64,000 nt of DNA from a virus (taxonomy: Duplodnaviria; Caudoviricetes): the IMG/VR virus record IMGVR_UViG_2884411467_000001, positions 17,098-81,097 of that record. The stretch is one strand, 5' to 3'. The notes under the pieces are model-generated. The model made no database searches. It was not told the origin of the DNA and saw only the letters and a program-made list of their open reading frames with translations. Made by a program: the position numbers and the translations under genes. Positions 15,140 to 31,125 of this stretch are shown here, one piece after another (positions within the stretch are counted from its first letter, which is position 1; every line of letters starts with the position of its first letter).

Positions 15140-15217
15140 GGCGCACGCTCCAGGGCGGACCCCTCACGGTGATAGGCTGGCTGTGCGACCAGAACAACCA
15201 CACACCGAAGGGAATCC

Positions 15218-15466: not shown

Positions 15467-15638
15467 GCCACCAGATCCATGGACGCCATCGGATGTCGCG
15501 ATTGCGGTACCGCACGAACGCCCAGCCAACATGCACCCACCAACCACGACCATTCGCGCGATATACAGGGCGCATACCCATTACGAGCGCCAGCGCGTTC
15601 ATCTTGATTGGGTCGAGGTTGGGAGTGATGTCAGTCAT
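15300..15638 (-). CDS. Hypothetical Trp-rich protein; 3' end probably disrupted by the moron
   Basis: ATGA coupling to the upstream gene; the 3' part runs antisense to the moron. Confidence 0.4.
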   Translation of the reverse strand: MTDITPNLDPIKMNALALVMGMRPVYRANGRGWWVHVGWAFVRYRNRDIRWRPWIWWPTSETGGNRAVEAGASVLRGTQGRARSPAIRYRRRPNPVHVRAKRRLTSLDRGEC

Positions 15639-15874
15639 GTCTGTGGCGTGAGATGCGCGCGATCGAGCTCCCGTAGAGCAATCGCTGCGTCGCTGGTGGT
15701 CATACCTGAGCGCGCCGCCAGCTCTTTGCAGGCGGCTTCGAAGGCAAGTTCTTCAGGCGGTTTTCCGAGAAGCGATGCAGCGCTGATGAGTCGCCCGTAG
15801 GCCTCGTCACCACCAAGCTCCAACGCAGATAGACGGCCGTTAAAACGGTCCTGAACACGGACTTCAGCCTTCAT
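15635..15874 (-). CDS. Hypothetical phage protein
   Basis: Coupled ORF in the pR operon. Confidence 0.55.
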   Translation of the reverse strand: MKAEVRVQDRFNGRLSALELGGDEAYGRLISAASLLGKPPEELAFEAACKELAARSGMTTSDAAIALRELDRAHLTPQT

Positions 15875-16064
15875 GCGAGCCAGCGCTACGCTGTTCGCCG
15901 AATTCCTCCAGGATCTTCTGAACGCCCATGTTGATGAGCTCGCGCTTCAGCTCTCCCCACGTACGTCCGGCCAACACGGCAGCTTTCTTGCCGCGCCCGC
16001 GCTCGATGTCATTGAGAGCGACCTTCTCGTCTTGGCGCCGAAGCTGGGGATCGAGGTACGTCAT
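15864..16064 (-). CDS. Small regulator at the CII position
   Basis: 66 aa gene directly after cro. Confidence 0.55.
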   Translation of the reverse strand: MTYLDPQLRRQDEKVALNDIERGRGKKAAVLAGRTWGELKRELINMGVQKILEEFGEQRSAGSHEG

Positions 16065-16104
16065 AGTCAGGTCCTTTGAACTGCGAGTTGGTCTGTGGTC
16101 ACGG

Positions 16105-16314
16105 TCAAGCGGCCTGATTGGGCTGCTTGTCGTTGTTGGCGGGCGGCTGGCGACCTACAAGCTGCAAGATGCGAAACCCGGTGTCGTAGCTCACGGAAAG
16201 AACCCCGTTCCGGATGCGATTGATCGTCGAGCGGTTAACGCCAACGGCCTGGGCGATTTGATGCTCGTTCCAGTGGGCATCGATGAGGGCTTGCACAGCG
16301 GCTTTAGGAGTCAT
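16105..16314 (-). CDS. cro: Cro-like repressor
   Basis: HTH NEHQIAQAVGVNRSTINRIRNG; divergent from cI. Confidence 0.85.
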   Translation of the reverse strand: MTPKAAVQALIDAHWNEHQIAQAVGVNRSTINRIRNGVLSVSYDTGFRILQLVGRQPPANNDKQPNQAA

Positions 16315-16327
16315 GGGCCATGAGCAT

Positions 16328-16343
16328 TGTGCGTTTACGCACA
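16328..16343. promoter_or_regulatory. Right operator (OR) palindrome TGTGCGTTTACGCACA
   Basis: 16-bp near-palindrome between cro and cI; an identical copy is at 19414. Confidence 0.85.
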
Positions 16344-16391
16344 AATGTCAATGCTTTTGCGCAATCAACTGCGCAGACGCAATGTCCGAAC

Positions 16392-17084
16392 ATGGAGGGC
16401 ATGAGCTACCTCCAGCAGAACCTCAAATGGCTGTTTGAAACGAAGAAGACCAACGGCTACCAAGTGGCCCAGAAGACGGGCGTGGTCGCGAGCACGATCA
16501 ATCGCATCGTGAATAGCAAGTTCAACGACGCGCGAGACAGCACGATTCGGCCAATCGCGGAACACTTCGGCCTTTCAGTCAATGACTTGAAGAATGTGGA
16601 CCTGCAGGCCCAGGAGAAGCTTCTGGCCGTGGGTGAGGCCGTGGGTAAGCTGTCAGTGGACGCGTGCCTGATCACGGCGGTTCCCGAATTTTTCCCGGAG
16701 GATGCTCCGCTCATGAACCTGCTGGCACCTCAGGACACGATCGCCCTATCGAAACCTGCGCTCGCGGCTATCACGACCGCCCCGCCATCTGATGTGCGTT
16801 TCGCGATTGCCCTGGACGATGCCATGCGCGGCGAGATTGAAAAAGGTGAGCTGGTTCTCATTGATACCCGTGTTCGGACCGTTACGGTCGACGGCATCTA
16901 TGCTTTTACTTACTTCAAGCGACCGCACATTAAGCGAGGCGGTCACGAGGGAGCATCAGGTGGTTTGATGTTCACCGGAACCAATCCAAGGGTGAACAAT
17001 ATCCCCGTGGAGACCGAGGAAGAGATGAAAGGACTCAACATCATCGGCCAAGTCATTGCCTCCTTCACCAGGCGGCGTTACTGA
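16392..17084 (+). CDS. cI: CI-like repressor (XRE HTH plus S24 peptidase domain)
   Basis: HTH GYQVAQKTGVVASTINRI; C-terminal DAMRGEIEKGELVLID...DGIYAF...IKR. Confidence 0.88.
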   Translation: MEGMSYLQQNLKWLFETKKTNGYQVAQKTGVVASTINRIVNSKFNDARDSTIRPIAEHFGLSVNDLKNVDLQAQEKLLAVGEAVGKLSVDACLITAVPEFFPEDAPLMNLLAPQDTIALSKPALAAITTAPPSDVRFAIALDDAMRGEIEKGELVLIDTRVRTVTVDGIYAFTYFKRPHIKRGGHEGASGGLMFTGTNPRVNNIPVETEEEMKGLNIIGQVIASFTRRRY

Positions 17085-17119
17085 GTCGATTGCCTGCGGC
17101 CTTCAGGGGGAGGGACAAG

Positions 17120-18778
17120 GTGGTATATCTAGCAAAGTGGGCCAGGAACTATTGGGTCCAAGGGACTGCCTTTGCCGTCCTGTATGGATTGACCTTCTAC
17201 CATTTGAAGGATGCCTCGCCAGCTACTCTTAACTTGCCTGTCGGCATGCGACTAGCGCTTTTCCTTGCCCTTCCACCGCGTTGGTGGCCTTGGCTTGTCG
17301 CCGGAGACATCGGAGCAAACGGGTACTGGAACATCACCGTTGCCGTGAAGCATCACTTTCCTGCCCTTTGGGCGGCGGTGGGTACGTCAATGCCGGTGCT
17401 CGCAGGCCTGATCCCTGCACACTTCAACAGGAAGTTTGGCGGCCCATACGATTTTGATAAGCCCCGCGACGCGATGCGCTTCCTTACCACCGCAGCCGGC
17501 AGCTCGCTCCTCACCGCGCTGGTATGCATCCTTGGCATTCTGGCCGCATCCATCGGCCGCCCCACGGGCATGACCTATGCCGACCCGGCCTTGGCGTCCC
17601 AGTTCACGATTTATCTCACTGGAGCATTAGCTTCCACTGTGCTCCTGCCGCCACTGGTGCATGTCGTTCGGGAGTTCTTTCCTAAAGGCAAGCGTGCTCT
17701 CACGGACAAGGACCTGATCCTTATCGGCGGGTTTGCCGCCTATGTGCTGGTGGGAACGCTCTTCCTACAATCGGTCCCAATCGGCATGCTCACGCTTGTC
17801 CGATGTGCTCTCTATGCGCCCCTGATCCTCATGACGCGCATCATGGGTTGGCGTGGCGCCACCATCATGGGGCTCGTTTGTGCAATAGCTCTTCAGGCGA
17901 CGCAACGCGTTGACGTGGAAGGGCCATTTATCTCGGTGCAGGATATCGCCACTGCCTGCGCGGTCACCATGTTCATCTTCGGGTCCGTTATCTCCGAACA
18001 ACGCAAGCAGGTGATAGCTGCCAAGGCGCAAAGCGAGCAGTCGCAGAGCGACGTGCGTCAGATGCGTGGCCTTGTTAAGCGCCACGCAACTCGTTCCGAA
18101 GCGCTCTTTCGGCACAGCGCGGGAATCATGGAAGATCTCGTGCGCGGCGCTCAGCAGGCGGAACGACAGATGCAGGACACGCCCGATCGTGGGGAGCGCG
18201 CCCTCATCCAGTGGGAGGCGATGAAGGGAATTCGCGAACGAATGCGCTCACTGAGTGAGATCTTCCATCCAGAATTGCTCGAGCAGGCAGGGCTCAGAGC
18301 AACTATCTCGTCCGGGCCGCTGTACCAGATACTCAGCGCCTGCGGGATTGCGTTTGACGACGATCTACGTGCGCGTCCGGGCCTACTCTCGCAAGAAGTC
18401 CAAATGTCGCTGTACCGCCTTTCTTACGAAGGGGCGTGCGTCATGCTTCGCGATAAGACACCGGAGAGGATGGTGGTGTCACTTCGGATCGGCAGAATTG
18501 CTAGGGGGCCGCGCTACGCGATCCTGCGCTTGAAAGGCGTTGTTTCGAGCCCTGAGGGATGGCGTGCCCCGACCAGTGTTGTGACCACAGGTTTCAGCCT
18601 GGATGGTATGGGCTTGGTGGCGGAAAGCTTCCAGGGTCGCGTCAAATACAGCAGGGACGCGCACCGCATGACCATCCTCTTGTTCGACGGTGCAACTCAG
18701 GCGATCACTGAGACCGTAAAGGCCCTACCGTTCTCAATGAACCAAGGCCACCCCTCGGTTACCGACGCCGCGGGCTAA
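17120..18778 (+). CDS. MASE1 membrane sensor with a degenerate UhpB-like kinase C-terminus
   Basis: LNLPVGMRLALFLALPPRWWPWLVAGD (MASE1) and about 9 TM segments. FHPELLEQAGL and LYRLSYEG resemble HisKA_3/HATPase segments but lack the ELHD, N-box and G-box motifs. GTG start at 17120 with RBS. Confidence 0.8.
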   Translation: MVYLAKWARNYWVQGTAFAVLYGLTFYHLKDASPATLNLPVGMRLALFLALPPRWWPWLVAGDIGANGYWNITVAVKHHFPALWAAVGTSMPVLAGLIPAHFNRKFGGPYDFDKPRDAMRFLTTAAGSSLLTALVCILGILAASIGRPTGMTYADPALASQFTIYLTGALASTVLLPPLVHVVREFFPKGKRALTDKDLILIGGFAAYVLVGTLFLQSVPIGMLTLVRCALYAPLILMTRIMGWRGATIMGLVCAIALQATQRVDVEGPFISVQDIATACAVTMFIFGSVISEQRKQVIAAKAQSEQSQSDVRQMRGLVKRHATRSEALFRHSAGIMEDLVRGAQQAERQMQDTPDRGERALIQWEAMKGIRERMRSLSEIFHPELLEQAGLRATISSGPLYQILSACGIAFDDDLRARPGLLSQEVQMSLYRLSYEGACVMLRDKTPERMVVSLRIGRIARGPRYAILRLKGVVSSPEGWRAPTSVVTTGFSLDGMGLVAESFQGRVKYSRDAHRMTILLFDGATQAITETVKALPFSMNQGHPSVTDAAG

Positions 18779-18790
18779 ACCCGCGGCGTC
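18764..18790. terminator. Perfect 11-bp hairpin at the convergent gene junction
   Basis: GACGCCGCGGG-CTAAA-CCCGCGGCGTC. Confidence 0.7.
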
Positions 18791-18800
18791 GTGGGACGCT

Positions 18801-19259
18801 TTAATTGATCTTCGTGCAGTCGGTGACACTGGTGCAGTCCGCCGCCGCGACAGGTCTCGCGCTGGGCGATGCCACAAGCCCTCTTGTTGGCGATGCAGTA
18901 ACCGTGGTGCCGCTGTCTGAGTACACGGTCACGCCGTCAGCCGGTGCCGAATCAGTGACCGCCTGCAATTGACCGGCGCCCAGCGGCAGCGCGAGCGAAC
19001 TCGTCCCATCAGGCGACGCCGCCACGCCGCCGCGCACAGTTCCGTTCACGTCGTTCACCTGGATGAATTTCAGGCCATTGACGGCGAACACGTAGACATG
19101 GAACTGCGGATTCGCGCTTACGTCCTGGGCGTTTGGCCACGATTGGCCCAAGCCGCTGGCCGGCGCAGTCTGGGCTACTGCAACGCCCAAACCACCCATC
19201 AGCAAGCACAGCCCCATCGCCAAGGCCACAACGGCCCACTTTAATCTGCTCCGGTCCAT
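18801..19259 (-). CDS. Secreted protein with signal peptide and C-terminal Cys-x5-Cys tail
   Basis: MDRSRLKWAVVALAMGLCLLMGGLGVAVA signal peptide; GLGQSWPNAQDVS..FHVYVF..IQVND core; ends AADCTSVTDCTKIN. Confidence 0.8.
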   Translation of the reverse strand: MDRSRLKWAVVALAMGLCLLMGGLGVAVAQTAPASGLGQSWPNAQDVSANPQFHVYVFAVNGLKFIQVNDVNGTVRGGVAASPDGTSSLALPLGAGQLQAVTDSAPADGVTVYSDSGTTVTASPTRGLVASPSARPVAAADCTSVTDCTKIN

Positions 19260-19377
19260 CCCCTGCTCTCCTTCAGTCTGTTGGCCTTTCGGCGATTCTT
19301 GCGCCGCCAACTCAAGCACTGAACCTGATCAAAAACATGAACGCCCACTGAATGCCGCGCACATTTCAGTGCGGATG

Positions 19378-19429
19378 TGTGCGTTTTCGCACGCACCCCT
19401 ATTGCAAATAGTATGTGCGTTTACGCACA
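19378..19429. promoter_or_regulatory. Left operator (OL) sites and pL region
   Basis: TGTGCGTTTTCGCACG at 19378 and TGTGCGTTTACGCACA at 19414, upstream of the early operon. Confidence 0.82.
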
Positions 19430-19459
19430 ATTGATTGCACTTCACGAGGGGCCTATGCG

Positions 19460-19699
19460 ATGAGCGCCGTCTACCCAGCCGAACTATTCGTCCTGCGCCG
19501 TCAGGTCCGAAACGTCTCACTCGCTCCAGCCAGCGTCACCAGGACAGCCGAACGCATCGCCCTTCGCGCCCGCGCCATCGGCATCTCCACCTTCCGTGCC
19601 CGCGAGGGCGCCCTGAACTACCTAGCCTCCCTGTCGTATCTGGGCGGTATGTACGTCCTCGGCGCCAGCGGCACTGACAAGCCGAAGGGTACGGCATGA
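19460..19699 (+). CDS. First pL gene, hypothetical
   Basis: GAGG RBS; coupled to the next ORF. Confidence 0.55.
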   Translation: MSAVYPAELFVLRRQVRNVSLAPASVTRTAERIALRARAIGISTFRAREGALNYLASLSYLGGMYVLGASGTDKPKGTA

Positions 19700-19962
19700 C
19701 CACCGAGCCGAGTTTCCGCGCCCGGTGGGTCAATGAGGCGAGCTCCACCACCAAAATCCCGTCAGACGTCGCTCCCATCACCGTCCACGGATCAGGTGTT
19801 GAAGACGCGATCACCAAGATCTCAATCAACATCGGGTCCGCTTGCATAGGCATCGATGACGCAACGGCCGAGCTCATTGCCGAAGCACTCGTTTATGCAG
19901 TGAAAAAGCGGCGCGACGCGTTCGCCCAGAGAGCCGCGGCGCAGCGGGAGCAGTCCGCATGA
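19696..19962 (+). CDS. Hypothetical phage protein
   Basis: ATGA-coupled chain of early genes. Confidence 0.55.
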   Translation: MTTEPSFRARWVNEASSTTKIPSDVAPITVHGSGVEDAITKISINIGSACIGIDDATAELIAEALVYAVKKRRDAFAQRAAAQREQSA

Positions 19963-20150
19963 ATCCGATGCCCGCCCCGCTCACCGATGCAGAACTCGAC
20001 GCGCTCGGCGCACTCGCAGGCCTGCGCATCAATCGCTGCATCGACGAAATCCTTTCCAGTTTGCCGGCCTCGCCGGGGACGTCCGCCCCCTCTCCCCCCT
20101 CCGGTGTTTCCGGCGGGGCTGGCACCTTCTCTTCGGAGGATCGCACGTGA
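19959..20150 (+). CDS. Hypothetical phage protein
   Basis: ATGA-coupled. Confidence 0.45.
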   Translation: MNPMPAPLTDAELDALGALAGLRINRCIDEILSSLPASPGTSAPSPPSGVSGGAGTFSSEDRT

Positions 20151-20395
20151 AGCGCATCGCTCTGCTTGCATTCGCTTGCCTGGCTCTCGCCGCCTGTACC
20201 GATGAGGCCACCACGCGCGCCGCTCTCGACGCCGAGGGCTTCACGGACGTCCACATCACCGGATATGCGCCGTTCTCGTGCGCTGACAGTGACGACTATG
20301 CCACCAGCTTTGTTGCGACCAACGCGAAAGGTAAGCGCGTCCAGGGTGTCGTCTGCAGCAGCTTGATGGGCAAGAACGCAACGGTGCGCTGGTGA
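20147..20395 (+). CDS. Small phage lipoprotein
   Basis: Lipobox LALAAC after MKRIALLAF. Confidence 0.8.
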   Translation: MKRIALLAFACLALAACTDEATTRAALDAEGFTDVHITGYAPFSCADSDDYATSFVATNAKGKRVQGVVCSSLMGKNATVRW

Positions 20396-20640
20396 TGGCC
20401 GTGGCCGCGCTCTTCTCGATCTTCCGCACTCGTCGCGGCGAATGGACGGGATGCACTCCGCCCTCAGCAGCTGAGCGCATGGCGCTCTACAGCCCGCGGC
20501 ATGCCGCTGAGATCCAAGCGCGAGAGAACGCCGGCACTGCCGCACCTCGCTTCACCCTCCACAACGGTCGGCCTGTTCTGGTCGCCTTCCCCACTCGCCT
20601 CAACCCCGTGCCCAAGGAGAAGACGAATGTTCGGACGTAA
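20392..20640 (+). CDS. Hypothetical phage protein
   Basis: Coupled ORF. Confidence 0.45.
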   Translation: MMAVAALFSIFRTRRGEWTGCTPPSAAERMALYSPRHAAEIQARENAGTAAPRFTLHNGRPVLVAFPTRLNPVPKEKTNVRT

Positions 20641-20989
20641 GCACCAGCTTGCCATGGCCCTGCAGGCCCTTCGCTACTACGGCAACGAAGAGACCTATCG
20701 GCGTCGCGGACGGAAGGATGACTACCAGCCCGCGCCCTTCACCACCGACCACGGTAAGCGCGCTCGCGCTGCCTTGGAGGCGATCCGTGACGATCAGGCG
20801 CGTTCGGTCCTCTCGCGCGTGGGTGCCCTCTTTCGTCGCCGCCCTACGTCGCTCGGTGTGTTTGAGCCGCCCAGGGTCCCCAAGGCGCTGTCTTCCAGCG
20901 AACGACGTGCGCGCAAGGCCTTTGAGCAGTCGCAGCGCGATGTGGCTGCACTCAATGCCCGTCGCGATCGCGAGGAAGCGGCTGCGTGA
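20627..20989 (+). CDS. Hypothetical basic phage protein
   Basis: AAGGAG RBS, start MFGRKHQ. Confidence 0.55.
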   Translation: MFGRKHQLAMALQALRYYGNEETYRRRGRKDDYQPAPFTTDHGKRARAALEAIRDDQARSVLSRVGALFRRRPTSLGVFEPPRVPKALSSSERRARKAFEQSQRDVAALNARRDREEAAA

Positions 20990-21183
20990 ACCGCACGCCC
21001 GATCTCTTCGACGGGATCTTCGACAACCAGTCCACCGGTCGTCGTGAGGTCTGGCTCGATGGGAACGTGACACGACATGCGCGCCGCAATGCCGTCGGCG
21101 ACGCGCAATCCAACTGGCGCGAGATGCGGGCTCCGTGGGGTTCCTACCCCGACCTCCCGGCAAACGCATCCGCGCCAATCTGA
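20986..21183 (+). CDS. Hypothetical phage protein
   Basis: GTGA coupling. Confidence 0.5.
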   Translation: MNRTPDLFDGIFDNQSTGRREVWLDGNVTRHARRNAVGDAQSNWREMRAPWGSYPDLPANASAPI

Positions 21184-21327
21184 CGGGCAGCCGATGCCGG
21201 CGGCATATCCGGCGATCCGAACACTGAGGCGAAGAAACGGCTGCTCTGGGTTCCTGTGGTGACGACCCATGCATCGATCAGCGCCGGAGAACGTAACCGG
21301 CAACTCACCAACCAACTGGAGCCAACC

Positions 21328-21519
21328 ATGGCGTTCAAGTTCCGAATGAAGGCGAAAGTGAAGATCAAGGTCAGCGGCGAGACCGGCACGATCATTGGCC
21401 GCGCCGATTACGAGGCAGCGGAGAACAACTACCGCGTGCGCTACGTCGCCAAGACCGGCACCGCCGCAGAGCGCTGGTGGACGGAGTCCGCACTGGTCGC
21501 AGCAACCACCTCGAAGTGA
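21328..21519 (+). CDS. Small conserved phage protein (SH3-like)
   Basis: VKIKVSGETGTIIGRADY...YRVRY...ERWWTESAL. Confidence 0.7.
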   Translation: MAFKFRMKAKVKIKVSGETGTIIGRADYEAAENNYRVRYVAKTGTAAERWWTESALVAATTSK

Positions 21520-21814
21520 TCTCCCCGCCCTGTGGAGTGACACAGGGCACATGAAGCGGGCCTGGCGTTCTTGGGCAACCACACCGGAATGGGTTCGGCG
21601 GGGTTTGAAGGTCCAGGCTCGCTTCATGTACTGGCAGTACGGCGCGCAGCGCGCGACGCAAAGTCCGTAGGTAATCAGACCTCGTATCCACTGAGCCGGT
21701 TCAAGCACGACGGCCAAGACCAAAAGGCACTCGGGGCCACGGCCGGACGATCCGGCTACTGCCACCTAACACATCACATCACATCACGTCGGCGTCGCCG
21801 GCAAGGGAATCGAA

Positions 21815-22378
21815 GTGACTGCACCGACGATTATCTTCCAGAAGGCCTTCATCAAAATCAACAAGGCCCCTGACATCAATGGCATTGCCAGCCTGCTGGA
21901 GCCGCTGACGCTGTCATCTATCACCAGCCAGGTGGATGGCTTTCTCAACCCAGATCCGAATCGCTTCGAGCTCGATGCATCCAGCGGAATCATCTACGAC
22001 CCGCTCACTGGGTTGATGTGGGGTGACGAGACGGACGAGCTGACGCCGGACGAAGCTATGGAAGCATGCAAGGCATCGCGCCAGGGTGGCCATTCCGACT
22101 GGACGAAAGCGGGCCTACGCCCGTGGCTCACCATTGTGGATTACACGCGCAACAACCCCGTGTTGCCACCGCCGTTCAAGACCCATGGCGACTCCGTTTG
22201 GACGGCTGACGAAACTCCTTGGAGCAAGAAGGAGAAGCGTACGGGTTCTTCCCGCTCCTTCTTCTACGTCGGCATGTGCTACGGCAACGTCAACTACTAC
22301 CTCGCCGGCTACCGGCGGCGTGCGCGGCCGGTGCGGCGCGCGGCGCCGGCCAGTCAGTGCTTGGTCATTGGCCAGTAA
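21815..22378 (+). CDS. DGR target protein, DUF1566 (Lcl C-terminal, C-type-lectin-like) domain
   Basis: IYDPLTGLMW, A.EAC...GHSDW and VWTADETPW motifs; the 3' end is the variable repeat. Confidence 0.88.
   Translation: MTAPTIIFQKAFIKINKAPDINGIASLLEPLTLSSITSQVDGFLNPDPNRFELDASSGIIYDPLTGLMWGDETDELTPDEAMEACKASRQGGHSDWTKAGLRPWLTIVDYTRNNPVLPPPFKTHGDSVWTADETPWSKKEKRTGSSRSFFYVGMCYGNVNYYLAGYRRRARPVRRAAPASQCLVIGQ
22242..22354 (+). repeat. DGR variable repeat (VR)
   Basis: 113 bp matching 22877-22989 with 13 mismatches, 12 of them at TR adenines. Confidence 0.97.
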
Positions 22379-22387
22379 CAGCCTGAC

Positions 22388-22822
22388 ATGACCTTCCACC
22401 TTCCTCCCGCCGTGCGGCTCGCAGAAACCCTTGCTCGCGACATCGAGCAAGCGGTCTCGAAGTTTCACCGCGCGCACCGCTACACGTTCGGCGCTGATCT
22501 TCGCGCCGATATGTGGGCCGTGCTCACGACCGCGAACCGTGCGGCGAGGAAGCCTTCGGAGCGGGCCGCGTTGCTCACCAGGCTGGTTGATCAGGTGGAT
22601 GACCTCAAGCAGCGCCTGCGCCTCGGCCAGTCGCTGCGTCAGTTCAACAGCTTCGGTCAGTTCGAAGCGCTCATGCGCTCGGCGATAAACCTCGGCCAGC
22701 AGATAGGCGGCTGGCACCGTCAGCACCACCCCAAAGGCCAGGATGGCCGGTCGCACGCGGCCGGACAGCGTGCCATGACACTGAGTACCCGTGACACCTC
22801 GATGGTTGAGGTCAATCAATGA
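22388..22822 (+). CDS. avd: DGR accessory variability determinant (four-helix bundle)
   Basis: FHRAHRYTFGADLR and LGQQIGGW motifs; lies between target and RT. Confidence 0.9.
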   Translation: MTFHLPPAVRLAETLARDIEQAVSKFHRAHRYTFGADLRADMWAVLTTANRAARKPSERAALLTRLVDQVDDLKQRLRLGQSLRQFNSFGQFEALMRSAINLGQQIGGWHRQHHPKGQDGRSHAAGQRAMTLSTRDTSMVEVNQ

Positions 22823-24171
22823 CGAAGCTTCGCTACCCACAGGGATGTGCAGCCAGGTCGCAAGTGCACGGGGACGCGGGTTCTTCCCGCTCCTTCTTCT
22901 ACGTCAACATGAACAACGGCAACGTCAACAACAACAACGCCAACAACCGGCTGCGTGCGCGGCCGGTGCGGCGCGCGGCGCCGGCCAGTGAGTGTCAGGG
23001 TGGGGTTACTGTTCGCCAATTGCACGATGCGATGTGCGCGGCTCGACGCCGGAAGAAACCCAGTGCGAACCAGCTCGCGTTCGAACTGGCCTGGATGGAT
23101 CGCCTCATCGCCATTGAGGCGGACATCAATGCTGGCCGATGGTCTCCAGCACCCGCAACATGCTTCGTCGCAACGCGCCCGAAGGCCCGTGAGATCCATG
23201 CGCCTGATTTCGGCGACCGCGTGGTTCACCACTGGCTCGTGCCTCAGCTGGAAGCCATCTACGAGCCGACGTTCATCCACGACAGCTATGCCAATCGAAA
23301 GCGCAAAGGCTCTCACGCGGCCGTTCTTCGGCTCAGGCAGTTCGTTCGCCAGACCGTCAGCGGTGAAGGCGGCGGCTGGTACCTGCAGCTCGACGTGCAT
23401 AACTTTTTCAACAGCATCCACCGACCCACCCTGTGGCTGATGTTGAAGGACCGCCTCACGCGCGCCAACCTCGATGCTGCAGCTTTGCGCGTGGTTCATG
23501 CACTCCTTCGTCATCCTGTTGAGCGCCAAGGCGTGCACCACCGAGCCACGGCCGCACAGCGCGCCATGGTTCCGGCTCACAAGCGGTTGGAGAATGCGGC
23601 GCCTGGATGCGGTTTACCAATCGGCAACCTCTCGTCTCAGTTCTTCGCCAATGTCTATCTAGACGCGCTCGATCAGTTCGTGAAGCACACGCTGAAGGCG
23701 AGGCGCTATGCCCGATATGTCGATGACTTCGTGCTAGTCCACCGTGATCGCGCCGTCCTGGAACAGTGGCAGCACGACATCGAGACTTTTCTTGGCCGGG
23801 AACTGGGCCTGAAGCTGAAGGCTGACATTCGGCTACGCCCTCTGTCAGCCGGCATCGATTTCCTGGGTTATGTCGTCTATCCAACCCACACGCGAGTTCG
23901 GGCTCGTGTGCTCCAGCACATGACGCAGAACCTCGCTGCTTGGGCCCAAGCACACAGCGTGAGGCACGGGTTCGCTGCGACACCCGCCGATATCCGCTCT
24001 GCCGGTTCGATTCTCGCGAGCTTTGACGGCCATCTGCGCCACGCGAATGCGGCGCGTGTGCGGCTCCAAATCTTGAGCCGCTTTCCCTGGGCCAGTCGAA
24101 TTCCGACGAAGGCCTCCTTTGCCCCAGCGCTAGAGGGAACGACCGTTCTCCTCCGGCATTCACACTCCTAA
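22819..24171 (+). CDS. DGR reverse transcriptase
   Basis: APDFGDRVVHH, LDVHNFFNSI, GLPIGNLSSQFFANVYL, RYVDDF and GIDFLGY motifs. Confidence 0.97.
   Translation: MTKLRYPQGCAARSQVHGDAGSSRSFFYVNMNNGNVNNNNANNRLRARPVRRAAPASECQGGVTVRQLHDAMCAARRRKKPSANQLAFELAWMDRLIAIEADINAGRWSPAPATCFVATRPKAREIHAPDFGDRVVHHWLVPQLEAIYEPTFIHDSYANRKRKGSHAAVLRLRQFVRQTVSGEGGGWYLQLDVHNFFNSIHRPTLWLMLKDRLTRANLDAAALRVVHALLRHPVERQGVHHRATAAQRAMVPAHKRLENAAPGCGLPIGNLSSQFFANVYLDALDQFVKHTLKARRYARYVDDFVLVHRDRAVLEQWQHDIETFLGRELGLKLKADIRLRPLSAGIDFLGYVVYPTHTRVRARVLQHMTQNLAAWAQAHSVRHGFAATPADIRSAGSILASFDGHLRHANAARVRLQILSRFPWASRIPTKASFAPALEGTTVLLRHSHS
22877..22989 (+). repeat. DGR template repeat (TR), in frame within the 5' end of the RT ORF
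   Basis: Contains 10 AAC codons and pairs with the VR. Confidence 0.97.
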
Positions 24172-24183
24172 GAGGATTTCTAA

Positions 24184-24576
24184 ATGGCTCAGGCCAAACG
24201 CAAGACCGCTCCGAAGCGCACCACCAGCCGTCCCCGCGCGCGTCGCACCGCCAGCAGCAAGATCAAGCTCCGCGCGATCAAGCCGGCTGATGAAGCCGTG
24301 CTCATGAAGGAAGTCGAGGTCGAGTTCGAAAAGCTGTCGCCTTACGATTTCGCGCACAGCGAACTGCTGAAGACCCTGGATCTGCTCACCGATCTCTCCG
24401 CTGAGTTGGAGCGCCGCCTGACGCCGGTGCTGAAGCCGAGCGACCTGGTCAAGGGCGAGAAGCTCATCCGACAGGAGAACGTCGCTCCGGTCATCGAGGC
24501 CTTTCAGTCGGTCGAGGCCCGCGTGGACACGGTCGCCCAGCGCGTCCAGTACCTCCTCGCCCACCTCGCCATCTGA
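24184..24576 (+). CDS. Hypothetical phage protein
   Basis: GAGG RBS; basic N-terminus with a helical C-terminus. Confidence 0.65.
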   Translation: MAQAKRKTAPKRTTSRPRARRTASSKIKLRAIKPADEAVLMKEVEVEFEKLSPYDFAHSELLKTLDLLTDLSAELERRLTPVLKPSDLVKGEKLIRQENVAPVIEAFQSVEARVDTVAQRVQYLLAHLAI

Positions 24577-24589
24577 TCGGAACGCCTGC

Positions 24590-24784
24590 ATGCCTCGTTA
24601 CGGTCGCAATGGTCGCTTCTTCCACTCGCTGAGCCCTCTGGCTCACAAGCTCGATGCGATCGCCATCTCCGCGCCGCACGTCAGTTCGGCACCCAAGGAC
24701 CATGACGAGGCCGTGGCCAAGCAACAGGCGAAGCTTGCGCGGCGTGCGGCGCGTGCTCGCATCGTTGAGGGTGGCCAGAAATGA
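24590..24784 (+). CDS. Hypothetical phage protein
   Basis: Coupled to the next gene. Confidence 0.5.
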   Translation: MPRYGRNGRFFHSLSPLAHKLDAIAISAPHVSSAPKDHDEAVAKQQAKLARRAARARIVEGGQK

Positions 24785-25371
24785 TGATTGCCGCCTTCCC
24801 TCTCTCGTGGCCAAAGAATTTCGGCCGCTTCGCTGATCGCGAAAAGGGTTCGTTCCGCGCCACGCTCGCCGGTGCGCTGAAGAACGTCCAGGACAGTATT
24901 CGCCTGTTCGCCAAAGACAGCGAGGTCGAGCTGGCCGGCTTGGTCATCTCGTCGAACTGCACCCTTGGCGTAACCCGCCCCGCTGACCCTGGCGTCGCTG
25001 TGTGGTTCACGTGGGGAGGCATGCAGGTCTGCATCCCCGTCGACCGCTACGCGACCGTGGAAGCGAACCTGCAGGCAATCCACCACATCATTGAGGCGCG
25101 CCGTGTGGAACTACGCCACGGAACACTTGAGCTCGTGCGCGCGTCGTTCTCTGGCTTCCTCGCATTGCCGGCACCCGGCCCAGACGACGCGAACCACTGG
25201 AGCGCGGTGCTCGCTGTGGATCGTGGCGCCTCTACGTCCGAGATCCGCGCAGCTATGCAGATTGCGCGGCTGCGCGCCCACCCGGATAAGTCGACCGGAT
25301 CACCCGAAGCGTTCAAACGCGTCATGGAGGCCTGGCAGCAGGTCTGCATCGAGCACGGTATCCCCGAATGA
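24781..25371 (+). CDS. Phage protein with a C-terminal J-domain
   Basis: AFPLSWP..R N-terminus and DPGVAVWF; C-terminal RAHPDK (HPD) motif. Confidence 0.85.
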   Translation: MMIAAFPLSWPKNFGRFADREKGSFRATLAGALKNVQDSIRLFAKDSEVELAGLVISSNCTLGVTRPADPGVAVWFTWGGMQVCIPVDRYATVEANLQAIHHIIEARRVELRHGTLELVRASFSGFLALPAPGPDDANHWSAVLAVDRGASTSEIRAAMQIARLRAHPDKSTGSPEAFKRVMEAWQQVCIEHGIPE

Positions 25372-25610
25372 CCGACATCCTCTTCCTATGTCGACGGGCA
25401 CGCGCCAGCACGCGCTGTGGCGCCAGCCTCGACGCAGCCCTACGCCACGCGCGCCAGGCGCAGCTGGAAGGCACTGAGGCAGGCCTGCGCCCGCAGGACA
25501 GCGCCGCCATTGATCGCGCGCTCCGTGACTTGGAGTTCGCCCTCAAGAGCACCGAGACCCACCGCCAGCGCCTTCTGCGCAAGGCTGATCGAAAGGAGCA
25601 GAACCAATGA
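25368..25610 (+). CDS. Hypothetical phage protein
   Basis: ATGA coupling. Confidence 0.5.
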   Translation: MTDILFLCRRARASTRCGASLDAALRHARQAQLEGTEAGLRPQDSAAIDRALRDLEFALKSTETHRQRLLRKADRKEQNQ

Positions 25611-26134
25611 ACATCGACGTCCGCGATGAAGTGATCGAGCGTGCGTGCCAAGCCTACTTCGTCGGCAATGTGCGCAAGCCCTGGCCGTGGCGCGACACGC
25701 AAGCCCTGGACGAACCGGACGCTGTGTTCGCGGCGATGCGCCTCGCGCTCGTTGCAGCCCTGGAGAAACTTGCCGGTACCGGCGTTGGACTCATCCTGGC
25801 GGAGCGCCAGCGGCAGATCACTGCCGAAGGCTATACGCCGGAGCGCGATGCCAAGACCTACGCTCAGGTGCCGGATGGCCACTATGCCGCCGAGTTGCCC
25901 TGCGCAGCCGCGGCGTATGCCTGCTTCGCAGGCATGATCGCCGACTTCCGCGATCTACAGCGAACTCAGGAACGCCCCGAACACCAGCCGCCGTCATGCT
26001 GGCCCTGGAGTGCTACCTCGTGGAAGCCTGGCGCAGACAACTCGAACGCGTCGCGCATCCGTGAACTGGAGAAGGCCGGCGCGTTGATCGCAGCTGAGAT
26101 CGATCGCCTCCTCTCTGCCAGTGAGGGCGCCTGA
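25607..26134 (+). CDS. Conserved phage protein
   Basis: ERQRQITAEGYTPERD...ELPCAAAAY...RELEKAGALIAAEIDRL. Confidence 0.75.
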   Translation: MNIDVRDEVIERACQAYFVGNVRKPWPWRDTQALDEPDAVFAAMRLALVAALEKLAGTGVGLILAERQRQITAEGYTPERDAKTYAQVPDGHYAAELPCAAAAYACFAGMIADFRDLQRTQERPEHQPPSCWPWSATSWKPGADNSNASRIRELEKAGALIAAEIDRLLSASEGA

Positions 26135-26135
26135 C

Positions 26136-26240
26136 ATGAAGTGGTTCATGAACCCCGACAACAACCCGACCATCCTGGTGATCGCGCTGGTTATTGCAGC
26201 CCTGTGTGTCTTTGCCAGCTTCGGAGCTGCCAATGGCTGA
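26136..26240 (+). CDS. Small single-TM protein (34 aa, not in the ORF track)
   Basis: MKWFMNPDNNPTILVIALVIAALCVFASFGAANG; fills the gap and overlaps the methyltransferase start. Confidence 0.5.
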   Translation: MKWFMNPDNNPTILVIALVIAALCVFASFGAANG

Positions 26241-28104
26241 CGGATCACATCAGGACGGCTTCAACTTCCCACGCCGGAAGTTTGCCTCTGCCCTTCGCCC
26301 GGGCGAAATCGTCGTCGATTTCTTCGCCGGTGGTGGCGGCGCCAGCGAGGCCTTGCGCCAGGCGCTTGGTCGTGACCCGGACGTTGCGGTCAACCACGAT
26401 CATCTGGCGATCAGCATGCATGCGGCCAACCATCCGTTTACGCGGCACATGGAGGCCGACGCCTGGACGGTCGATATCCTTCGGGAGGTCAATGGTCGCA
26501 AAACCGGCTGGTTCCATTCGAGCCCCGACTGCACGCACTTCAGCCAGGCCAAGGGCGGCCAGCCGCGCGATCGCCAAGTGCGAAGCCTCGCCTGGGTGAT
26601 CGTCAAGGTCGCCGGCATCCTCAACAAGCGCGGGCTCGCACCGCGCATCATCAGCCTGGAGAACGTCAAACAGATGCTGCTCTGGTCGCAGCTGGTCGCG
26701 AAGCGCGACAAAGCGACTGGGCGCGTCGTCAGGCTCGACGGGTCTATAGCTGCACCCGGTGAGCGCGTACCGCTGCGCGAGCAGTTCCTCGTGCCTGACA
26801 AGAAGCGCGCTGGCAGCATCTGGCGCCAGTTCGTCGGCGCGCTGCGTGCGCTCGGCTATGTCGTCGAGCATCGACTTCTGAAGGCCTGCGACTATGGCGC
26901 CGGCACGAGCCGCGAGCGTCTCTTCCTGATCGCGCGGCGCGACGGTGAGGCCATTCGCTGGCCAGAACCGACGCACGGGCCCGGTCGTGCCAAGCCCTAC
27001 GTCACCGCAGCGGACTGCATCGACTGGTCCATTGAGTGTCCGTCGATCTTCCAGCGGAAGAAGCCGCTCGCCGATGCGACTTGCCGGCGCATCGCCAAGG
27101 GCATCCAGCGCTACGTCATCACCGCTGCCGAGCCCTTCATCGTCCAGTGTGCCAACGCCTCAGCCAACGGCGTTGCATCATCCGACGACCCGCTTGGCGT
27201 CATCACAGCATGGCCGAAGGGCGGCTCGCATGCAGTCATTGCTCCGACACTTGTGCAGGCCGCGCATGGTGACGGCAAGCCACGCGGCGTGCAGCGCTGG
27301 GGTTCCGGGCACAGGCATGTCGAGAGTCAGCTTGGTGCGATTACAGCAAGCGGCGGCCATGCCGTCGCAGCGGCCCATCTGATCAAATTCCGCGGCGACA
27401 GCGATGGCGGCCCGGTGACCACGTCCATGCCGACCATCACGAGCGGCGCCGGGGCTGCCAGGCCTGCCGGCGCAGCCCACGCCATGGGCATCATCACTAC
27501 GTTCCTCGAACAGGCCAACGGTGGTGGCGAGAATGGCAACCCTGCCCGGGCACGCGGAGCTACCGAACCCGTCAGCTCGATCACCGGTACCGGCAGCCAG
27601 CAGCGCATTGTGACCGGTCATCTGACCGCCTTCGGTCAGAACGCCAAGGGAACGAGCGCGGGCGAACCGCTGCAGACGGCATTGGGTGGCGCCACGCGAT
27701 TCGGAGTCGTTGAGTGCACGCTGAGCCCGGAGCACGAGGCCGGTGCGCTGCGTGTTGCCGCCTTCCTCATCCGCTACTACGGCGAGGGCGGCCAGCACGG
27801 AAGCCTGCGCAATCCCGCGGCAACCATGACCACGAAGGAGAGGCTCGCGCTGGTCACCGTGACGATCCAGGGCACGCCCTACGTGATCGTGGACATCGGT
27901 CTACGCATGCTGCGCCGTGAAGAACTATTCCGCGCGCAGGGCTTCCCGGCTGACTACATTATCGATCGCACAGCCGACGGCAGGAAGTTAAGCATCAGCG
28001 CCAGCGTGCGCATGGTCGGTAACAGCGTGAGCCCGCCTCCGCTTGCCGCGCTTGCTCGCGCAAACCTCGAACTGAACGTCAAGAACTTCAGGGAGGCGGC
28101 GTGA
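26233..28104 (+). CDS. Orphan C5 DNA cytosine methyltransferase
   Basis: DFFAGGGG (motif I), SPDCTHFS (IV), LENV (VI), RERLF (VIII) and VRMVGNSV (X). Confidence 0.93.
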   Translation: MADGSHQDGFNFPRRKFASALRPGEIVVDFFAGGGGASEALRQALGRDPDVAVNHDHLAISMHAANHPFTRHMEADAWTVDILREVNGRKTGWFHSSPDCTHFSQAKGGQPRDRQVRSLAWVIVKVAGILNKRGLAPRIISLENVKQMLLWSQLVAKRDKATGRVVRLDGSIAAPGERVPLREQFLVPDKKRAGSIWRQFVGALRALGYVVEHRLLKACDYGAGTSRERLFLIARRDGEAIRWPEPTHGPGRAKPYVTAADCIDWSIECPSIFQRKKPLADATCRRIAKGIQRYVITAAEPFIVQCANASANGVASSDDPLGVITAWPKGGSHAVIAPTLVQAAHGDGKPRGVQRWGSGHRHVESQLGAITASGGHAVAAAHLIKFRGDSDGGPVTTSMPTITSGAGAARPAGAAHAMGIITTFLEQANGGGENGNPARARGATEPVSSITGTGSQQRIVTGHLTAFGQNAKGTSAGEPLQTALGGATRFGVVECTLSPEHEAGALRVAAFLIRYYGEGGQHGSLRNPAATMTTKERLALVTVTIQGTPYVIVDIGLRMLRREELFRAQGFPADYIIDRTADGRKLSISASVRMVGNSVSPPPLAALARANLELNVKNFREAA

Positions 28105-28106
28105 TG

Positions 28107-28796
28107 TCACTGCGGCTTGTTTGGAGGCCTAGCGACCGGGAGGAAGGGCTTCATGTTCTTCATTTGCCGCGGGTTGATCTTCTTATCGAAGTACTGAGTC
28201 GCAGCATTGAACTCAATGGCGCAAGCCGCAAGAAAGTCCTTCACTTCGGCGATCTTCTCCGCGACAAATTCGTCCCGAGGGTCATTAACAAGCGTCGCGA
28301 GTGCGCCAGTCTGCGCCTCGACGGCCGGGAGGGCATGGATACAGGTCGGAAGGTTGATCGTGAGATGCCGTGGCAGGTCAACAAATGCATCAGCTGGGAG
28401 GCTCTCCAGAGGGCTACGGAACTTAGGCCCATTGCGCCGAAACCAGACCGCATGGCCGCCGTCACGCAGGAACTCCCCTTTCATGCACCCGAGGCGAAGA
28501 TCAGCCTCCACGAACAGGGCTTTCAGCCGGCTCAGTTCCGGCAACGCCATGGCCAGAACAACATCACCTCGCCCCCGACTCGCGCTCCTCCTCCTAACAG
28601 CGTCCGACAACGCGATGCCAAGAGCCACTACGGCCGCGGCGAATGCGCCTATGCCGGCGAACCAAGTCCCTTGCTCGACAGCGTTGAGGCCAAGCCACCA
28701 ACGAACTGTCGGAGCCGAATGAGCCAGCGCTTCGACCCCTGCACACAGCGAATCCATTGCCATGCGTGAAATCTCCATCCTGTTGAATGGCCGCAT
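28107..28796 (-). CDS. Counter-oriented moron with one TM segment, hypothetical
   Basis: WFAGIGAFAAAVVALGIAL TM segment; antisense to the early operon. Confidence 0.65.
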   Translation of the reverse strand: MRPFNRMEISRMAMDSLCAGVEALAHSAPTVRWWLGLNAVEQGTWFAGIGAFAAAVVALGIALSDAVRRRSASRGRGDVVLAMALPELSRLKALFVEADLRLGCMKGEFLRDGGHAVWFRRNGPKFRSPLESLPADAFVDLPRHLTINLPTCIHALPAVEAQTGALATLVNDPRDEFVAEKIAEVKDFLAACAIEFNAATQYFDKKINPRQMKNMKPFLPVARPPNKPQ

Positions 28797-28833
28797 CGTA
28801 CGCCTTCCGCTGCTTCAGGGAGGCGGCGGGACG

Positions 28834-29073
28834 TCAGACCTCGCGATCCACTCCAACGCCACCGCCGATCGCCGTCGCCACCGTTTGGCGAACGGACTCC
28901 TCGTTCGACAGCTCAGAGGCATCTCCGAGAACGAGGATCGAGCCACCTGGTGTGCCGGCGATGTCTCCACGGCTGTTGCGCACCTTGGCGTTCCACAGGA
29001 TGCGATGGTCCGTGGGCAGATCCCAAATCGCCTCGTAGGTGTACCCGTCAAACTCACCGGTAATCCGCGCCAT
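28834..29073 (-). CDS. Counter-oriented small hypothetical protein
   Basis: MARITGEFDGYTYEAIW...; its start codon overlaps that of the plus-strand gene. Confidence 0.55.
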   Translation of the reverse strand: MARITGEFDGYTYEAIWDLPTDHRILWNAKVRNSRGDIAGTPGGSILVLGDASELSNEESVRQTVATAIGGGVGVDREV

Positions 29074-29788
29074 GCGTGAATCCCCCATCCTCTTCAGTGC
29101 CCCCATGGTCCGCGCCATCCTCGATGGGCGCAAGACGGTGACGCGGCGCATCGTGAAGCCGCAGCCGGACTTCGTGGTTCCGCAAGCCGATTCGAGCAAG
29201 CTGCCCGTCGTCGGCAAGTGCACGCCGGACGATGAAAAGCACGGACGCCTGGCCAAGTCGCTTTGGTGCCCGTATGGCCATGTCGGCGACCGCCTGTGGG
29301 TGCGCGAGACTCACATGCGTGTCCCTCATCCGGCAGAGTTCGGCTTTACCAAGGAAATGCTGCCTCACACGTGGGATGCCTGCTGCGAGGTTGCCGGCAC
29401 GTTCCTCTATCGCGCGGACCCATGTTCTGACTTGGTCGCAGATGGGCGCCAATGGACGCCCAGCATCCACATGCCACGGGCGGCCAGCCGCATCACCCTG
29501 GAGGTGACCGGCGTGCGCGTCGAGCGGCTGCAGGCCATCACGCATGAGCAGGCCGTGGCCGAGGGCGTGCATCGCATCGACATCGGCTCGGGCTATCGGC
29601 CGCGCTACAGCGCTGCACAGACGACCTGGCAGGAAGTCGTCGAAGGTACGGCCGATGCTTACGAGGACGCACGCCTGGCGTTCCGCGACCTGTGGCAATC
29701 CATCAACGGCCCCGGCAGCTGGGACGCCAACCCCTGGGTGTGGGCAGTCGAGTTCAAGCGCATCGAGCAAGAGAGGAAGGTGGCCTGA
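29072..29788 (+). CDS. Conserved phage protein (ASCH/PUA-like)
   Basis: PILFSAPMVRAILDGRKTVTRR, WTPSIHMPRAASRITLEVT and WDANPWVWAVEF motifs. Confidence 0.85.
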   Translation: MRESPILFSAPMVRAILDGRKTVTRRIVKPQPDFVVPQADSSKLPVVGKCTPDDEKHGRLAKSLWCPYGHVGDRLWVRETHMRVPHPAEFGFTKEMLPHTWDACCEVAGTFLYRADPCSDLVADGRQWTPSIHMPRAASRITLEVTGVRVERLQAITHEQAVAEGVHRIDIGSGYRPRYSAAQTTWQEVVEGTADAYEDARLAFRDLWQSINGPGSWDANPWVWAVEFKRIEQERKVA

Positions 29789-29994
29789 TGCTCCGACACG
29801 TGACCATCAGCAAGTTTGCCAAGGAATCGGGCTACACCGAGAACGCCATCCGCATGAAGATCAAGAACGGCGTATGGTTGGAAGGTGTCGTCTGGATGAG
29901 GTCACCCGATGGAAGGGTGTTAATCGACACAGAGGGATATGAGACATGGGTAGCCGGTCAGCAGGTGTCCGCGCTGCAACGCAGCGCAGCGTAG
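29788..29994 (+). CDS. xis: Excisionase
   Basis: VTISKFAKESGYTENAIRMKIKNGVW..PDGRVLI; overlaps int. Confidence 0.85.
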   Translation: MLRHVTISKFAKESGYTENAIRMKIKNGVWLEGVVWMRSPDGRVLIDTEGYETWVAGQQVSALQRSAA

Positions 29995-31112
29995 AGATCG
30001 ATTTTTATTACCGCGGTGCCAGGTGTCGCGAACGTCTCAAGCTGCCGCCGACTGCCGCCAACCTGAAGTTCGCGGCCAACTTGAAGGCCCAGATCGAGGC
30101 TGAGATCGCTCGGGGCGCTTTCGATTACGCGAGGTTCTTCCCCGACAGCAAGCGCGCCAGGACGCTCAGCAAGCTCCCAGGCGCAGCGCTGACCATCGAG
30201 AAGGGACTGGAGACTTGGCTCAAGGGGATGAAGAGCCAGATCGAGCACACGACCTACCGCGACTATGACCTTGCCATCCAGCGAGTATGGGTTCCGGCGT
30301 TCGGCGCCAAGCGGCTGACAGAGCTGACGCGCGGCGAGCTGAAAGAATGGGTGTCAGAACAGACCTGCGGGCTGAAGCGCATCCGCAACCTGCTGCTCCC
30401 CATGCGCGGCATGTTCGCCCAAGCGGTGGAGGATGAGCAGATCACGGCCAATCCGTTCGTCGGCTGGACACCGCGAAAGATCGAGCCGCCCAAAGAGTCG
30501 GACGATGTCGACCCGTTTACGCCGGCCGAGGTGGCGGCAATCCTGGAAGCCAGTGAGGGCCAGGTCCGCAACCTGTTTGAGTTCGGATTCTGGACCGGCC
30601 TGCGCACCAGCGAGCTGATCGCCCTGCGCTGGGAAGATGTCGACCTGGTCAATGGAATGGTCAGCGTGCGGCGGGCAAAGGTGCGCAAGAAGGTCAAGGC
30701 GCCCAAGACCAAGGCGGGACGGAGGACGGTTCAACTCCTGGTTCCGGCATTGAACGCCATTCAGGCGCAGCGCGCGCATTCTCAGCTCCGCGGCGAAGAG
30801 GTGTTCCTGAATCCGCGCACTGGCGAGCCATGGCTTCATGACGGGCCAATCCGCAAAACGGCATGGCACCCAGCCCTCAAACGCGCGGGCGTGCGATACC
30901 GATACCCCTACCAGATGCGCCACACCTTTGCCTCGACGCTGCTCAGCGCTGGCGAGAATCCCGTCTGGGTGGCGACCATGATGGGGCACAAGGATTGGGC
31001 CATGATCATCAAGGTCTATGGACGGTGGATTCCTTCGATCGCTCCTGACGCCGGACAGAAGGTGGCGGCACTTTGGTCAACATCTGGTCAGCCCACCGCC
31101 GCTAAGCGTTGA
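29946..31112 (+). CDS. int: Prophage tyrosine integrase (N-terminal arm-binding domain)
   Basis: TGLRTSEL, YQMRHTFAS and MGH...Y catalytic motifs. Confidence 0.95.
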   Translation: MGSRSAGVRAATQRSVEIDFYYRGARCRERLKLPPTAANLKFAANLKAQIEAEIARGAFDYARFFPDSKRARTLSKLPGAALTIEKGLETWLKGMKSQIEHTTYRDYDLAIQRVWVPAFGAKRLTELTRGELKEWVSEQTCGLKRIRNLLLPMRGMFAQAVEDEQITANPFVGWTPRKIEPPKESDDVDPFTPAEVAAILEASEGQVRNLFEFGFWTGLRTSELIALRWEDVDLVNGMVSVRRAKVRKKVKAPKTKAGRRTVQLLVPALNAIQAQRAHSQLRGEEVFLNPRTGEPWLHDGPIRKTAWHPALKRAGVRYRYPYQMRHTFASTLLSAGENPVWVATMMGHKDWAMIIKVYGRWIPSIAPDAGQKVAALWSTSGQPTAAKR

Positions 31113-31125
31113 AAATGCTCAAAGA

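Follow-up and report, generated by a model that had tools for sequence, protein, structure and literature searches.

A complete diversity-generating retroelement with a small C-type-lectin target in the putative early region of a Rhodanobacteraceae prophage

Overview

We analyzed a stretch of 64,000 nucleotides (hereafter the window), which corresponds to positions 17098-81097 of the IMG/VR provirus record IMGVR_UViG_2884411467_000001. Positions 21815-24171 of the window hold what is almost certainly a complete diversity-generating retroelement (DGR), with a target gene, the accessory variability determinant avd, a template repeat (TR), and a reverse transcriptase (RT) in this order. The target ends in a variable repeat (VR) that differs from the TR nearly always at template adenines, and it is a small stand-alone protein encoded between a repressor and an integrase. 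We tentatively read it as an early intracellular hypervariable binder that would act off the virion in the service of the phage, for example against host defence; given the genomic comparisons described below, this is a serious possibility, if short of a probable one. The parts of the element are the following:

21815-22378, + strand: DGR target gene, 187 aa; a poorly modelled N-terminus of ~45 aa, then a DUF1566/Lcl_C C-type-lectin domain
22242-22354, + strand: VR, covering target codons 143-180; differs from the TR at 13 sites, of which 12 are adenines in the TR
22318-22359, + strand: VR 3' end resembling an initiation of mutagenic homing (IMH) site; 37 bp of VR/TR identity, then a fixed C/G difference at 22355
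22388-22822, + strand: avd, 144 aa; phrog_3206 'Avd protein of DGR', E 4.5e-13
22877-22989, + strand: TR; contains ten AAC codons and 23 adenines in all, and shares 95-97% identity with the TRs at related loci
23032-24171, + strand: DGR reverse transcriptase; phrog_1423, Pfam RVT_1, motifs IGNLSSQ and YVDD

Adenine-specific differences between the repeats

A repeat search returned a direct repeat of 118 nt (22242-22359 and 22877-22994, 88% identity), which MAFFT aligned without gaps. A base-by-base count over the first 113 bp gives 13 mismatches, 12 of which are adenines in the TR, as claimed in a first-pass annotation of this DNA. With 23 adenines among the 113 TR positions, at least 12 of 13 mismatches would fall on adenines by chance with a binomial probability of 5.3e-8. 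The changes affect 12 of the 23 adenines and, in the target frame, always lie at codon position 1 or 2 of AAC codons. The TR contains exactly ten such codons, of which eight read differently in the VR (N to G, C, Y, Y, Y, L, G, and Y), and our recount also reproduces the ceiling of 15^10, or 5.8e11, variants that had been given for them. The sole mismatch at another base within the 113 bp, T22952 in the TR and G22317 in the VR, changes Leu to Arg and is private to the window copy, since T occupies this site in all related TRs and VRs. The search for further VR copies that had been advised was run on the entire 81-kb provirus record, where it found one VR and one TR.

The target stop codon lies 24 nt beyond the end of the VR. 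Its last 37 bp (22318-22354) are GC-rich and identical to the TR, and directly after them comes a 14th difference, C at 22355 in the VR and G at 22990 in the TR, which recurs in 9 of 9 VR/TR comparisons from five loci. Because every related pair has the same C/G difference, it marks the IMH/IMH* boundary, i.e., the end of the transferred tract, and is not a mutation. A GC-rich hairpin or cruciform just after the VR is required for efficient homing in phage BPP-1 but is not universal among DGRs. The DNA fold after the window VR (22340-22400) is not significant (z -0.66).

Avd and the reverse transcriptase

Besides its PHROGs match, Avd is similar to NCBIfam NF033474 DivGenRetAVD (E 1.1e-8) and to Pfam bAvd (E 3.4e-4), in both cases under the model cut-off, and it is 95% identical to the Avd of the related locus L007. 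Its comparison with PDB sequences gave no match. The RT matches phrog_1423 with an E-value of 2.1e-90 across residues 68-427 of a 450-aa frame, and RVT_1 with an E-value of 1.9e-13; the motifs IGNLSSQ and YVDD can both be read directly in the translation. Its closest relative of solved structure is 8ub7_A (E 1.4e-35), the 328-aa RT of entries 8ub7-8ube, which we take to be the BPP-1 RT. This match is far ahead of those to group II intron RTs (3.8e-12) and to retron RTs. The RT shares 62-86% of its residues with its counterparts at related loci and has no stops.

The RT frame is open over 22819-24171 (450 aa): an ATG at 22819 overlaps the avd stop codon as ATGA (22819-22822), and the frame then reads through the TR. 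The same is true of the frames of related loci (451-473 aa), and that of L007 also begins at the avd stop. Since similarity to other RTs starts only near residue 68, the protein may begin not at ATG 22819 but at TTG 23020 or ATG 23032, both of which exclude the TR. The open reading frames and motifs thus agree with the first-pass description (target 21815-22378, Avd 22388-22822, RT frame 22819-24171 with GNLSSQ and YVDD), and so does the completeness of the element, with VR/TR pair, Avd, RT motifs, and IMH/IMH* all present; the one correction is that the intact 450-aa frame takes in the TR.

Diversification in the lineage

Searches recovered 45-66 homologues of the target, of 170-190 aa, and the named ones come only from Rhodanobacter and Dyella. 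They form two paralogue types with different N-termini, type A ending in ...ASQ and type B in ...ASQCLVIGQ. Four loci with an RT (L005-L008) have the gene order A, B, Avd, TR, RT, and in L006-L008 the cassette occupies the same genome slot. Each of the four has two VRs with 10-15 mismatches to the TR, and 96 of these 100 mismatches are at TR adenines. Hence, the adenine-specific variation in related strains on which the first-pass annotation had staked its claim was found. TRs are 95-97% identical between loci, RT proteins only 62-86%. Among 61 homologues, the ten AAC-coded positions average 2.86 bits of entropy and the flanking residues within 141-181 average 0.70 bits; hypervariability is confined to these ten residues. 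Comparison of the loci thereby shows a lineage that diversifies by adenine-specific VR change. The earlier term "active" suits the lineage as a whole, while for the window copy activity is predicted from this comparison.

Three public bioreactor-metagenome runs contain, in small shares, contigs of relatives (~90-97% alike) that extend from Avd to RT and break at the VR and the TR; no contig in these runs covers the variable part. Orphan homologues with VR-like ends occur in Dyella sp. 2RAB6 (L004:10001-10534) and in a complete 42.7-kb phage with terminal repeats (L010:9824-10432), and no DGR RT was found anywhere in the Dyella sp. 2RAB6 genome or in the phage record. The phage homologue is an isolated gene on the opposite strand, flanked by the small terminase gene and the lysis genes. 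In the family of Dyella sp. 2RAB6, 7 of the 201 species genomes have a homologue.

A single hybrid target

The window has one target where its RT-bearing relatives have two. The DNA of its body is 60-64% identical to A-type genes and 52-56% to B-type genes, whereas its 3' flank and C-terminal tail are closer to the B type (72-91% identity to B-type flanks, 52-61% to A-type ones). The spacing between target and avd is 9 nt, as for B genes, and the closest relative by RT, L007 (86%), has both A and B genes. An A-type body with a B-type 3' end, together with two genes in the nearest relative, points to a deletion between VR-A and VR-B. The simplest history is therefore that the window target is an A-body/B-tail hybrid, which would have arisen by recombination between the two VRs of a two-target cassette.

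In three of the four relatives, a clear GC-rich hairpin lies a few bases beyond the 3' end of the A-type VR (L005:1940-1990, L006:10523-10570, and L008:10532-10580; for example GGAGGGCGC-AAA-GCGCCCTCC). B-type VRs and the hybrid VR of the window have no such hairpin on their 3' side. One may then ask if the deletion that fused the targets left a cassette unable to home, with the VR as a fossil of past diversification. The single hybrid target, the private substitution at a base other than adenine, and the lack of a significant hairpin after the VR would all suit such a relic, and there are relatives where the RT was lost and the targets orphaned. Yet, all three open reading frames are intact, with the catalytic motifs in place, the TR has kept 95-97% identity to the relatives' TRs, and only one change outside adenines has accumulated. 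Furthermore, the B-type VRs of the relatives, which have the same 3' flank, are fully adenine-mutagenised. We consider a frozen cassette improbable.

The target protein

The target gene starts with GTG, preceded at 7 nt by the ribosome-binding-like motif AAGGGAA. Its product matches Pfam PF07603 (Lcl_C/DUF1566) with an E-value of 1.8e-9 and 38.3 bits, above the gathering cut-off of 34.9. An AlphaFold2 model built from 23 sequences was unusable (mean predicted local distance difference test, pLDDT, of 47) and was replaced by one built from a 61-sequence alignment, with a pLDDT of 84.8; values exceed 90 at about residues 45-175, and residues 1-44 are of low confidence. The top Foldseek matches of this model in the PDB are all C-type-lectin domains, with probabilities of 0.99-1.00 but E-values of only 2e-3 to 1e-2. 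They include the C-terminal domain of Legionella Lcl (8q4e_A, template modelling score 0.58), and matches in the viral library include DUF1566 proteins from uncultured tailed phages. Direct reading of the N-termini of both paralogue types found no hydrophobic h-region or leader, no lipobox, and no Cys. These results bear out the earlier description of a stand-alone 187-aa DUF1566 protein lacking a signal peptide.

Other searches with the target were negative. It matched no PHROGs family and no structural protein there, tblastn against 50,697 phage records gave no match and no similarity to Mtd, and a profile search with the target family found no PDB sequence. PADLOC assigned neither the target nor the genes beside it to a defence family; all it returned were generic RT matches. 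We looked for longer proteins carrying the N-terminal residues 1-58 and found none, which is weak evidence. A profile search was dominated by giant multi-repeat proteins, in keeping with the usual place of DUF1566 domains in extracellular adhesins. Two assignments were rejected. A tail-fibre receptor-binding protein of the Mtd type is not supported, as there is no similarity to Mtd or tail-fibre families and the gene lies ~35 kb from the fibre gene on the opposite strand. A surface-displayed target of the LdtA/TvpA type is not supported by the N-terminus, read directly, which has neither signal peptide nor lipobox.

Comparison with known systems

The BPP-1 DGR (mtd-avd-TR-brt) has the same order of target, Avd, TR, and RT, adenine-specific differences at AAC codons, a VR at the C-terminus of a C-type-lectin fold, and a GC-rich IMH with a fixed IMH/IMH* difference. 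However, Mtd is a 381-aa trimeric protein of the tail-fibre tip encoded at the end of the tail module, whereas the window target has 187 aa and lies in an early chain, and no significant hairpin follows its VR. In Legionella pneumophila LdtA, of the CLec2/DUF1566 class, the VR is also within a DUF1566-type lectin domain, but LdtA is a surface lipoprotein on an integrative element, while the window target is phage-borne and free of signal peptide and lipobox.

The layout of the window also occurs in three cultured phages. Burkholderia cenocepacia phage Magia (MT701587; genes 44-47 and 57), described as a myophage (PMC7883833), is temperate and has short stand-alone lectin-fold targets (120-154 aa), Avd, and an RT whose DNA is 74% identical to that of the window over the conserved core. 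In its early operon, the cassette is flanked by recombination/regulator genes on one side and the integrase on the other. It differs in having an adjacent pair of targets and a remote one (gene 57) instead of one hybrid, and its target sequences have no detectable similarity to the window target. Pseudomonas phages Cruim01 (PP179333) and LPPA56 (OR188718) have two targets of ~200 aa ending in VRs, an Avd-sized gene, TR, and RT, in an early chain with a DNA methyltransferase and with an integrase downstream; these cassette genes are annotated just as hypothetical in both records. The C-terminal lectin part of their targets is distantly homologous to that of the window target (hhalign 89.6%, E 1.9e-6), but the N-terminal halves are unrelated, and Cruim01 is a siphovirus by annotation.

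Short targets of this sort have also been catalogued. DUF1566-type VRs (category d, CLec2) make up 14% of DGRs, about half of them in short DUF1566-only proteins (Wu et al. 2018, PMC5758913). Among 92 DGRs of temperate phages only five have Mtd-like targets, and the majority of the targets have unknown function (Benler et al. 2018, PMC6199706); viral DGR targets have been classed as structural or unknown (Roux et al. 2021, PMC8144416). The first-pass annotation presented a small non-structural target in the early operon as a departure from the classic pattern. In light of the catalogues of PMC5758913 and PMC6199706, and of the early-operon layout in Magia, Cruim01, and LPPA56, the window DGR is not new in kind.

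Genome context

By its gene content the prophage is a contractile-tailed, temperate phage integrated at ssrA, and its host is a Dyella/Rhodanobacter-type bacterium. The features around the DGR are, in order:

16320-17084, + strand: CI-like repressor
17090-18778, + strand: MASE1 membrane protein
from 19696, + strand: chain of small, tightly packed genes
21815-24171, + strand: DGR
24781-25371, + strand: DnaJ-domain protein (phrog_9210), kept downstream of the DGR in L007 and L008
26194-28104, + strand: DNA methyltransferase, 636 aa, in the same early chain as the DGR
29946-31112, + strand: integrase
ending at 31155, + strand: 3' fragment of transfer-messenger RNA (tmRNA), right after the integrase

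The tmRNA fragment after the integrase marks one end of the prophage; a direct-repeat search of record positions 1-4400 for the left att site gave no convincing match. Genes for an O-like replication protein, a Q-like antiterminator, and an endolysin are on the - strand and run in the opposite direction. The major head protein, tail sheath, tape measure, baseplate, and a 295-aa tail fibre (L003:4310-5197, ~35 kb from the DGR target) are also on the - strand, in the 17 kb left of the window. Since the target is on the + strand and the late genes run away from it on the - strand, late transcription cannot read it. A promoter and terminator scan of 15000-31500 gave no promoter-like sites and terminator-like sites at chance level. 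The "pL operon" of the first-pass annotation is hence a positional analogy, drawn from the place between repressor and integrase. What stands of that claim is the place itself, in a chain that is remote from the tail genes and does not share the strand of the late operon; the pL promoter it implied was not seen in the scan. The place "among host-interaction genes" is likewise not supported, as the neighbours of the target are mostly genes of unknown function.

This position bears on the classic role of phage DGRs, tropism switching. Here, the small lectin would dock by its N-terminus on the tail fibre or baseplate as an adhesin cap, and the DGR would vary receptor recognition, as for Mtd of BPP-1, the experimentally established paradigm (PMC5758913). 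Several features would fit: the protein has a C-type-lectin fold whose variable face is C-terminal, the DUF1566 superfamily is adhesin-like in character, and the prophage's own tail fibre is short. A leaderless cytoplasmic protein is what one expects of a virion component, its N-terminal segment could dock, and two myovirus relatives share both the cassette and a sheath protein that is 72% identical. Nevertheless, ~35 kb separate the gene from that of the fibre, it belongs to the early chain and is oriented against the late operon, and a siphovirus as well as myoviruses have the same layout. The protein has no similarity to PHROGs structural families or Mtd, the search for longer proteins with its N-terminal segment found none (with the weight noted above), and the orphan homologue is a moron-like gene in an unrelated phage. 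On balance, we find tropism switching unlikely.

Two other observations concern the surroundings. The MASE1 protein directly follows the CI-like repressor and is accompanied by a convergent small protein with a signal-peptide-like N-terminus (17090-19319 in all); homologues of both are at the same place in L004, L007, and L008. Beyond the tmRNA fragment lie a second integrase gene (31358-32620), an AbiTii-family gene (32795-33688), and an HNH nuclease gene (33841-34863), which look like a second island at the same site as the prophage.

A conserved two-hairpin leader

The non-coding gap upstream of the target holds a structured element:

21527-21625, + strand: two-hairpin element; the non-coding gap that contains it is 295 bp long

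Hairpin 1 is invariant (GCCCTGTGGAGTGACACAGGGC) and is abutted by a long hairpin 2 (CACATGAAGCGGGCCTGG...CCAGGCTCGCTTCATGT). The predicted RNA fold of 21520-21670 has an energy of -73.7 kcal/mol (z -3.37), and none of 200 shuffles was as good. The element also precedes the targets in L006/L018, L007/L035, and L008. At eight distinct loci, folded singly, the basal stem of hairpin 2 (12-18 bp) differs in its letters and keeps its complementarity; RNAalifold on the eight leader copies recovers only hairpin 1, as MAFFT cannot align the variable hairpin 2. There is one copy in the window, and an Rfam scan of 21000-25000 gave no match. A pattern scan of IMG/VR returned 23 stretches, ~14 of them with the full element, and in this set DUF1566 genes follow it only in two already known DGR loci. 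The other genes behind it are early-region cargo, including a methyltransferase, a Cas4-like exonuclease, and a MazG-like protein. Because it mostly precedes early cargo unrelated to DGRs, it belongs to the early operons of this phage group in general and plays no part in the DGR mechanism. Candidate roles are those of a module boundary, an RNase III-type processing site, or an antitermination (put/nut-like) RNA.

The leader is also relevant to a function on the side of the lysogen, in which the prophage would express the target as a hypervariable sensor or blocker of superinfecting phages or other invaders, for defence or exclusion. Temperate phages are known to carry exclusion genes near their immunity region, such as rexAB and sieB of lambda. 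The cassette has this conserved structured leader, and the non-coding gap of 200-500 bp could hold a promoter of its own; orphan copies of the target persist in genomes lacking the RT, and DGR-diversified lectin domains have been proposed as cellular immune sensors (PMC10053308). However, the target has no effector domain or partner gene, PADLOC was null for it and its neighbours, and the co-directional chain would be repressed in the lysogen if driven from a pL-like promoter, while the scan found no promoter. A lysogen-side role thus seems rather doubtful to us.

A possible role off the virion

By the established DGR mechanism, TR RNA would be copied by the RT with Avd, and random bases would be put in opposite template adenines. 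The cDNA would then replace the VR up to the IMH boundary at 22354/22355, rewriting the ten AAC codons on the ligand-binding face of the DUF1566 lectin domain. Under the reading we favour, an early binder acting within the infected cell, the target would be made in the cytoplasm alongside early and accessory genes, and would then serve the phage during infection as a soluble hypervariable binder. Its most likely ligand would be a polymorphic host protein or glycan, for instance a defence component.

The early position on the + strand speaks for a role off the virion, and so does a slot that phages with unlike tails have in common: Cruim01, a siphovirus, and Magia, a myovirus, have the same two-target architecture, which is therefore not tied to one tail type. 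The leaderless N-terminus, the absence of any structural-protein signal, the moron-like orphan in L010, and the large DNA methyltransferase in the same chain point the same way. Several considerations weigh on the other side. To our knowledge, every experimentally characterised phage DGR diversifies a receptor-binding protein. DUF1566 domains are typically found within extracellular adhesins, the poorly modelled ~45-aa N-terminus could be a peptide docking onto a virion protein, and the absent signal peptide fits a virion protein equally well. The scan of 15000-31500, with its lack of promoter-like sites, gives the early assignment no help. As to current activity, the private change at 22317 and the want of a GC-rich hairpin like those after the relatives' A-type VRs count against the window copy.

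Significance

DGRs are, as far as we know, the only natural systems of targeted protein hypermutation in prokaryotes and their viruses, and we know of no phage DGR function demonstrated so far other than tropism switching by tail fibres. The locus described here adds a Rhodanobacteraceae lineage, a case where two targets would have collapsed into one by VR-VR recombination, and orphan targets that outlive their RT. That a conserved DGR family acts on small leaderless early-operon proteins, in myoviruses as well as siphoviruses, points to a second use of these elements, which can be tested in the cultured phages Magia, Cruim01, and LPPA56. We put forward, as a conjecture we hold to be possible though not likely, that temperate phages of Proteobacteria may keep a DGR-made repertoire of small cytoplasmic lectin-fold binders, made early, that would neutralise or sense polymorphic proteins of the host or of rival phages. 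If true, this would be an antibody-like arm of the arms race between phages and their hosts, and not a tropism switch.

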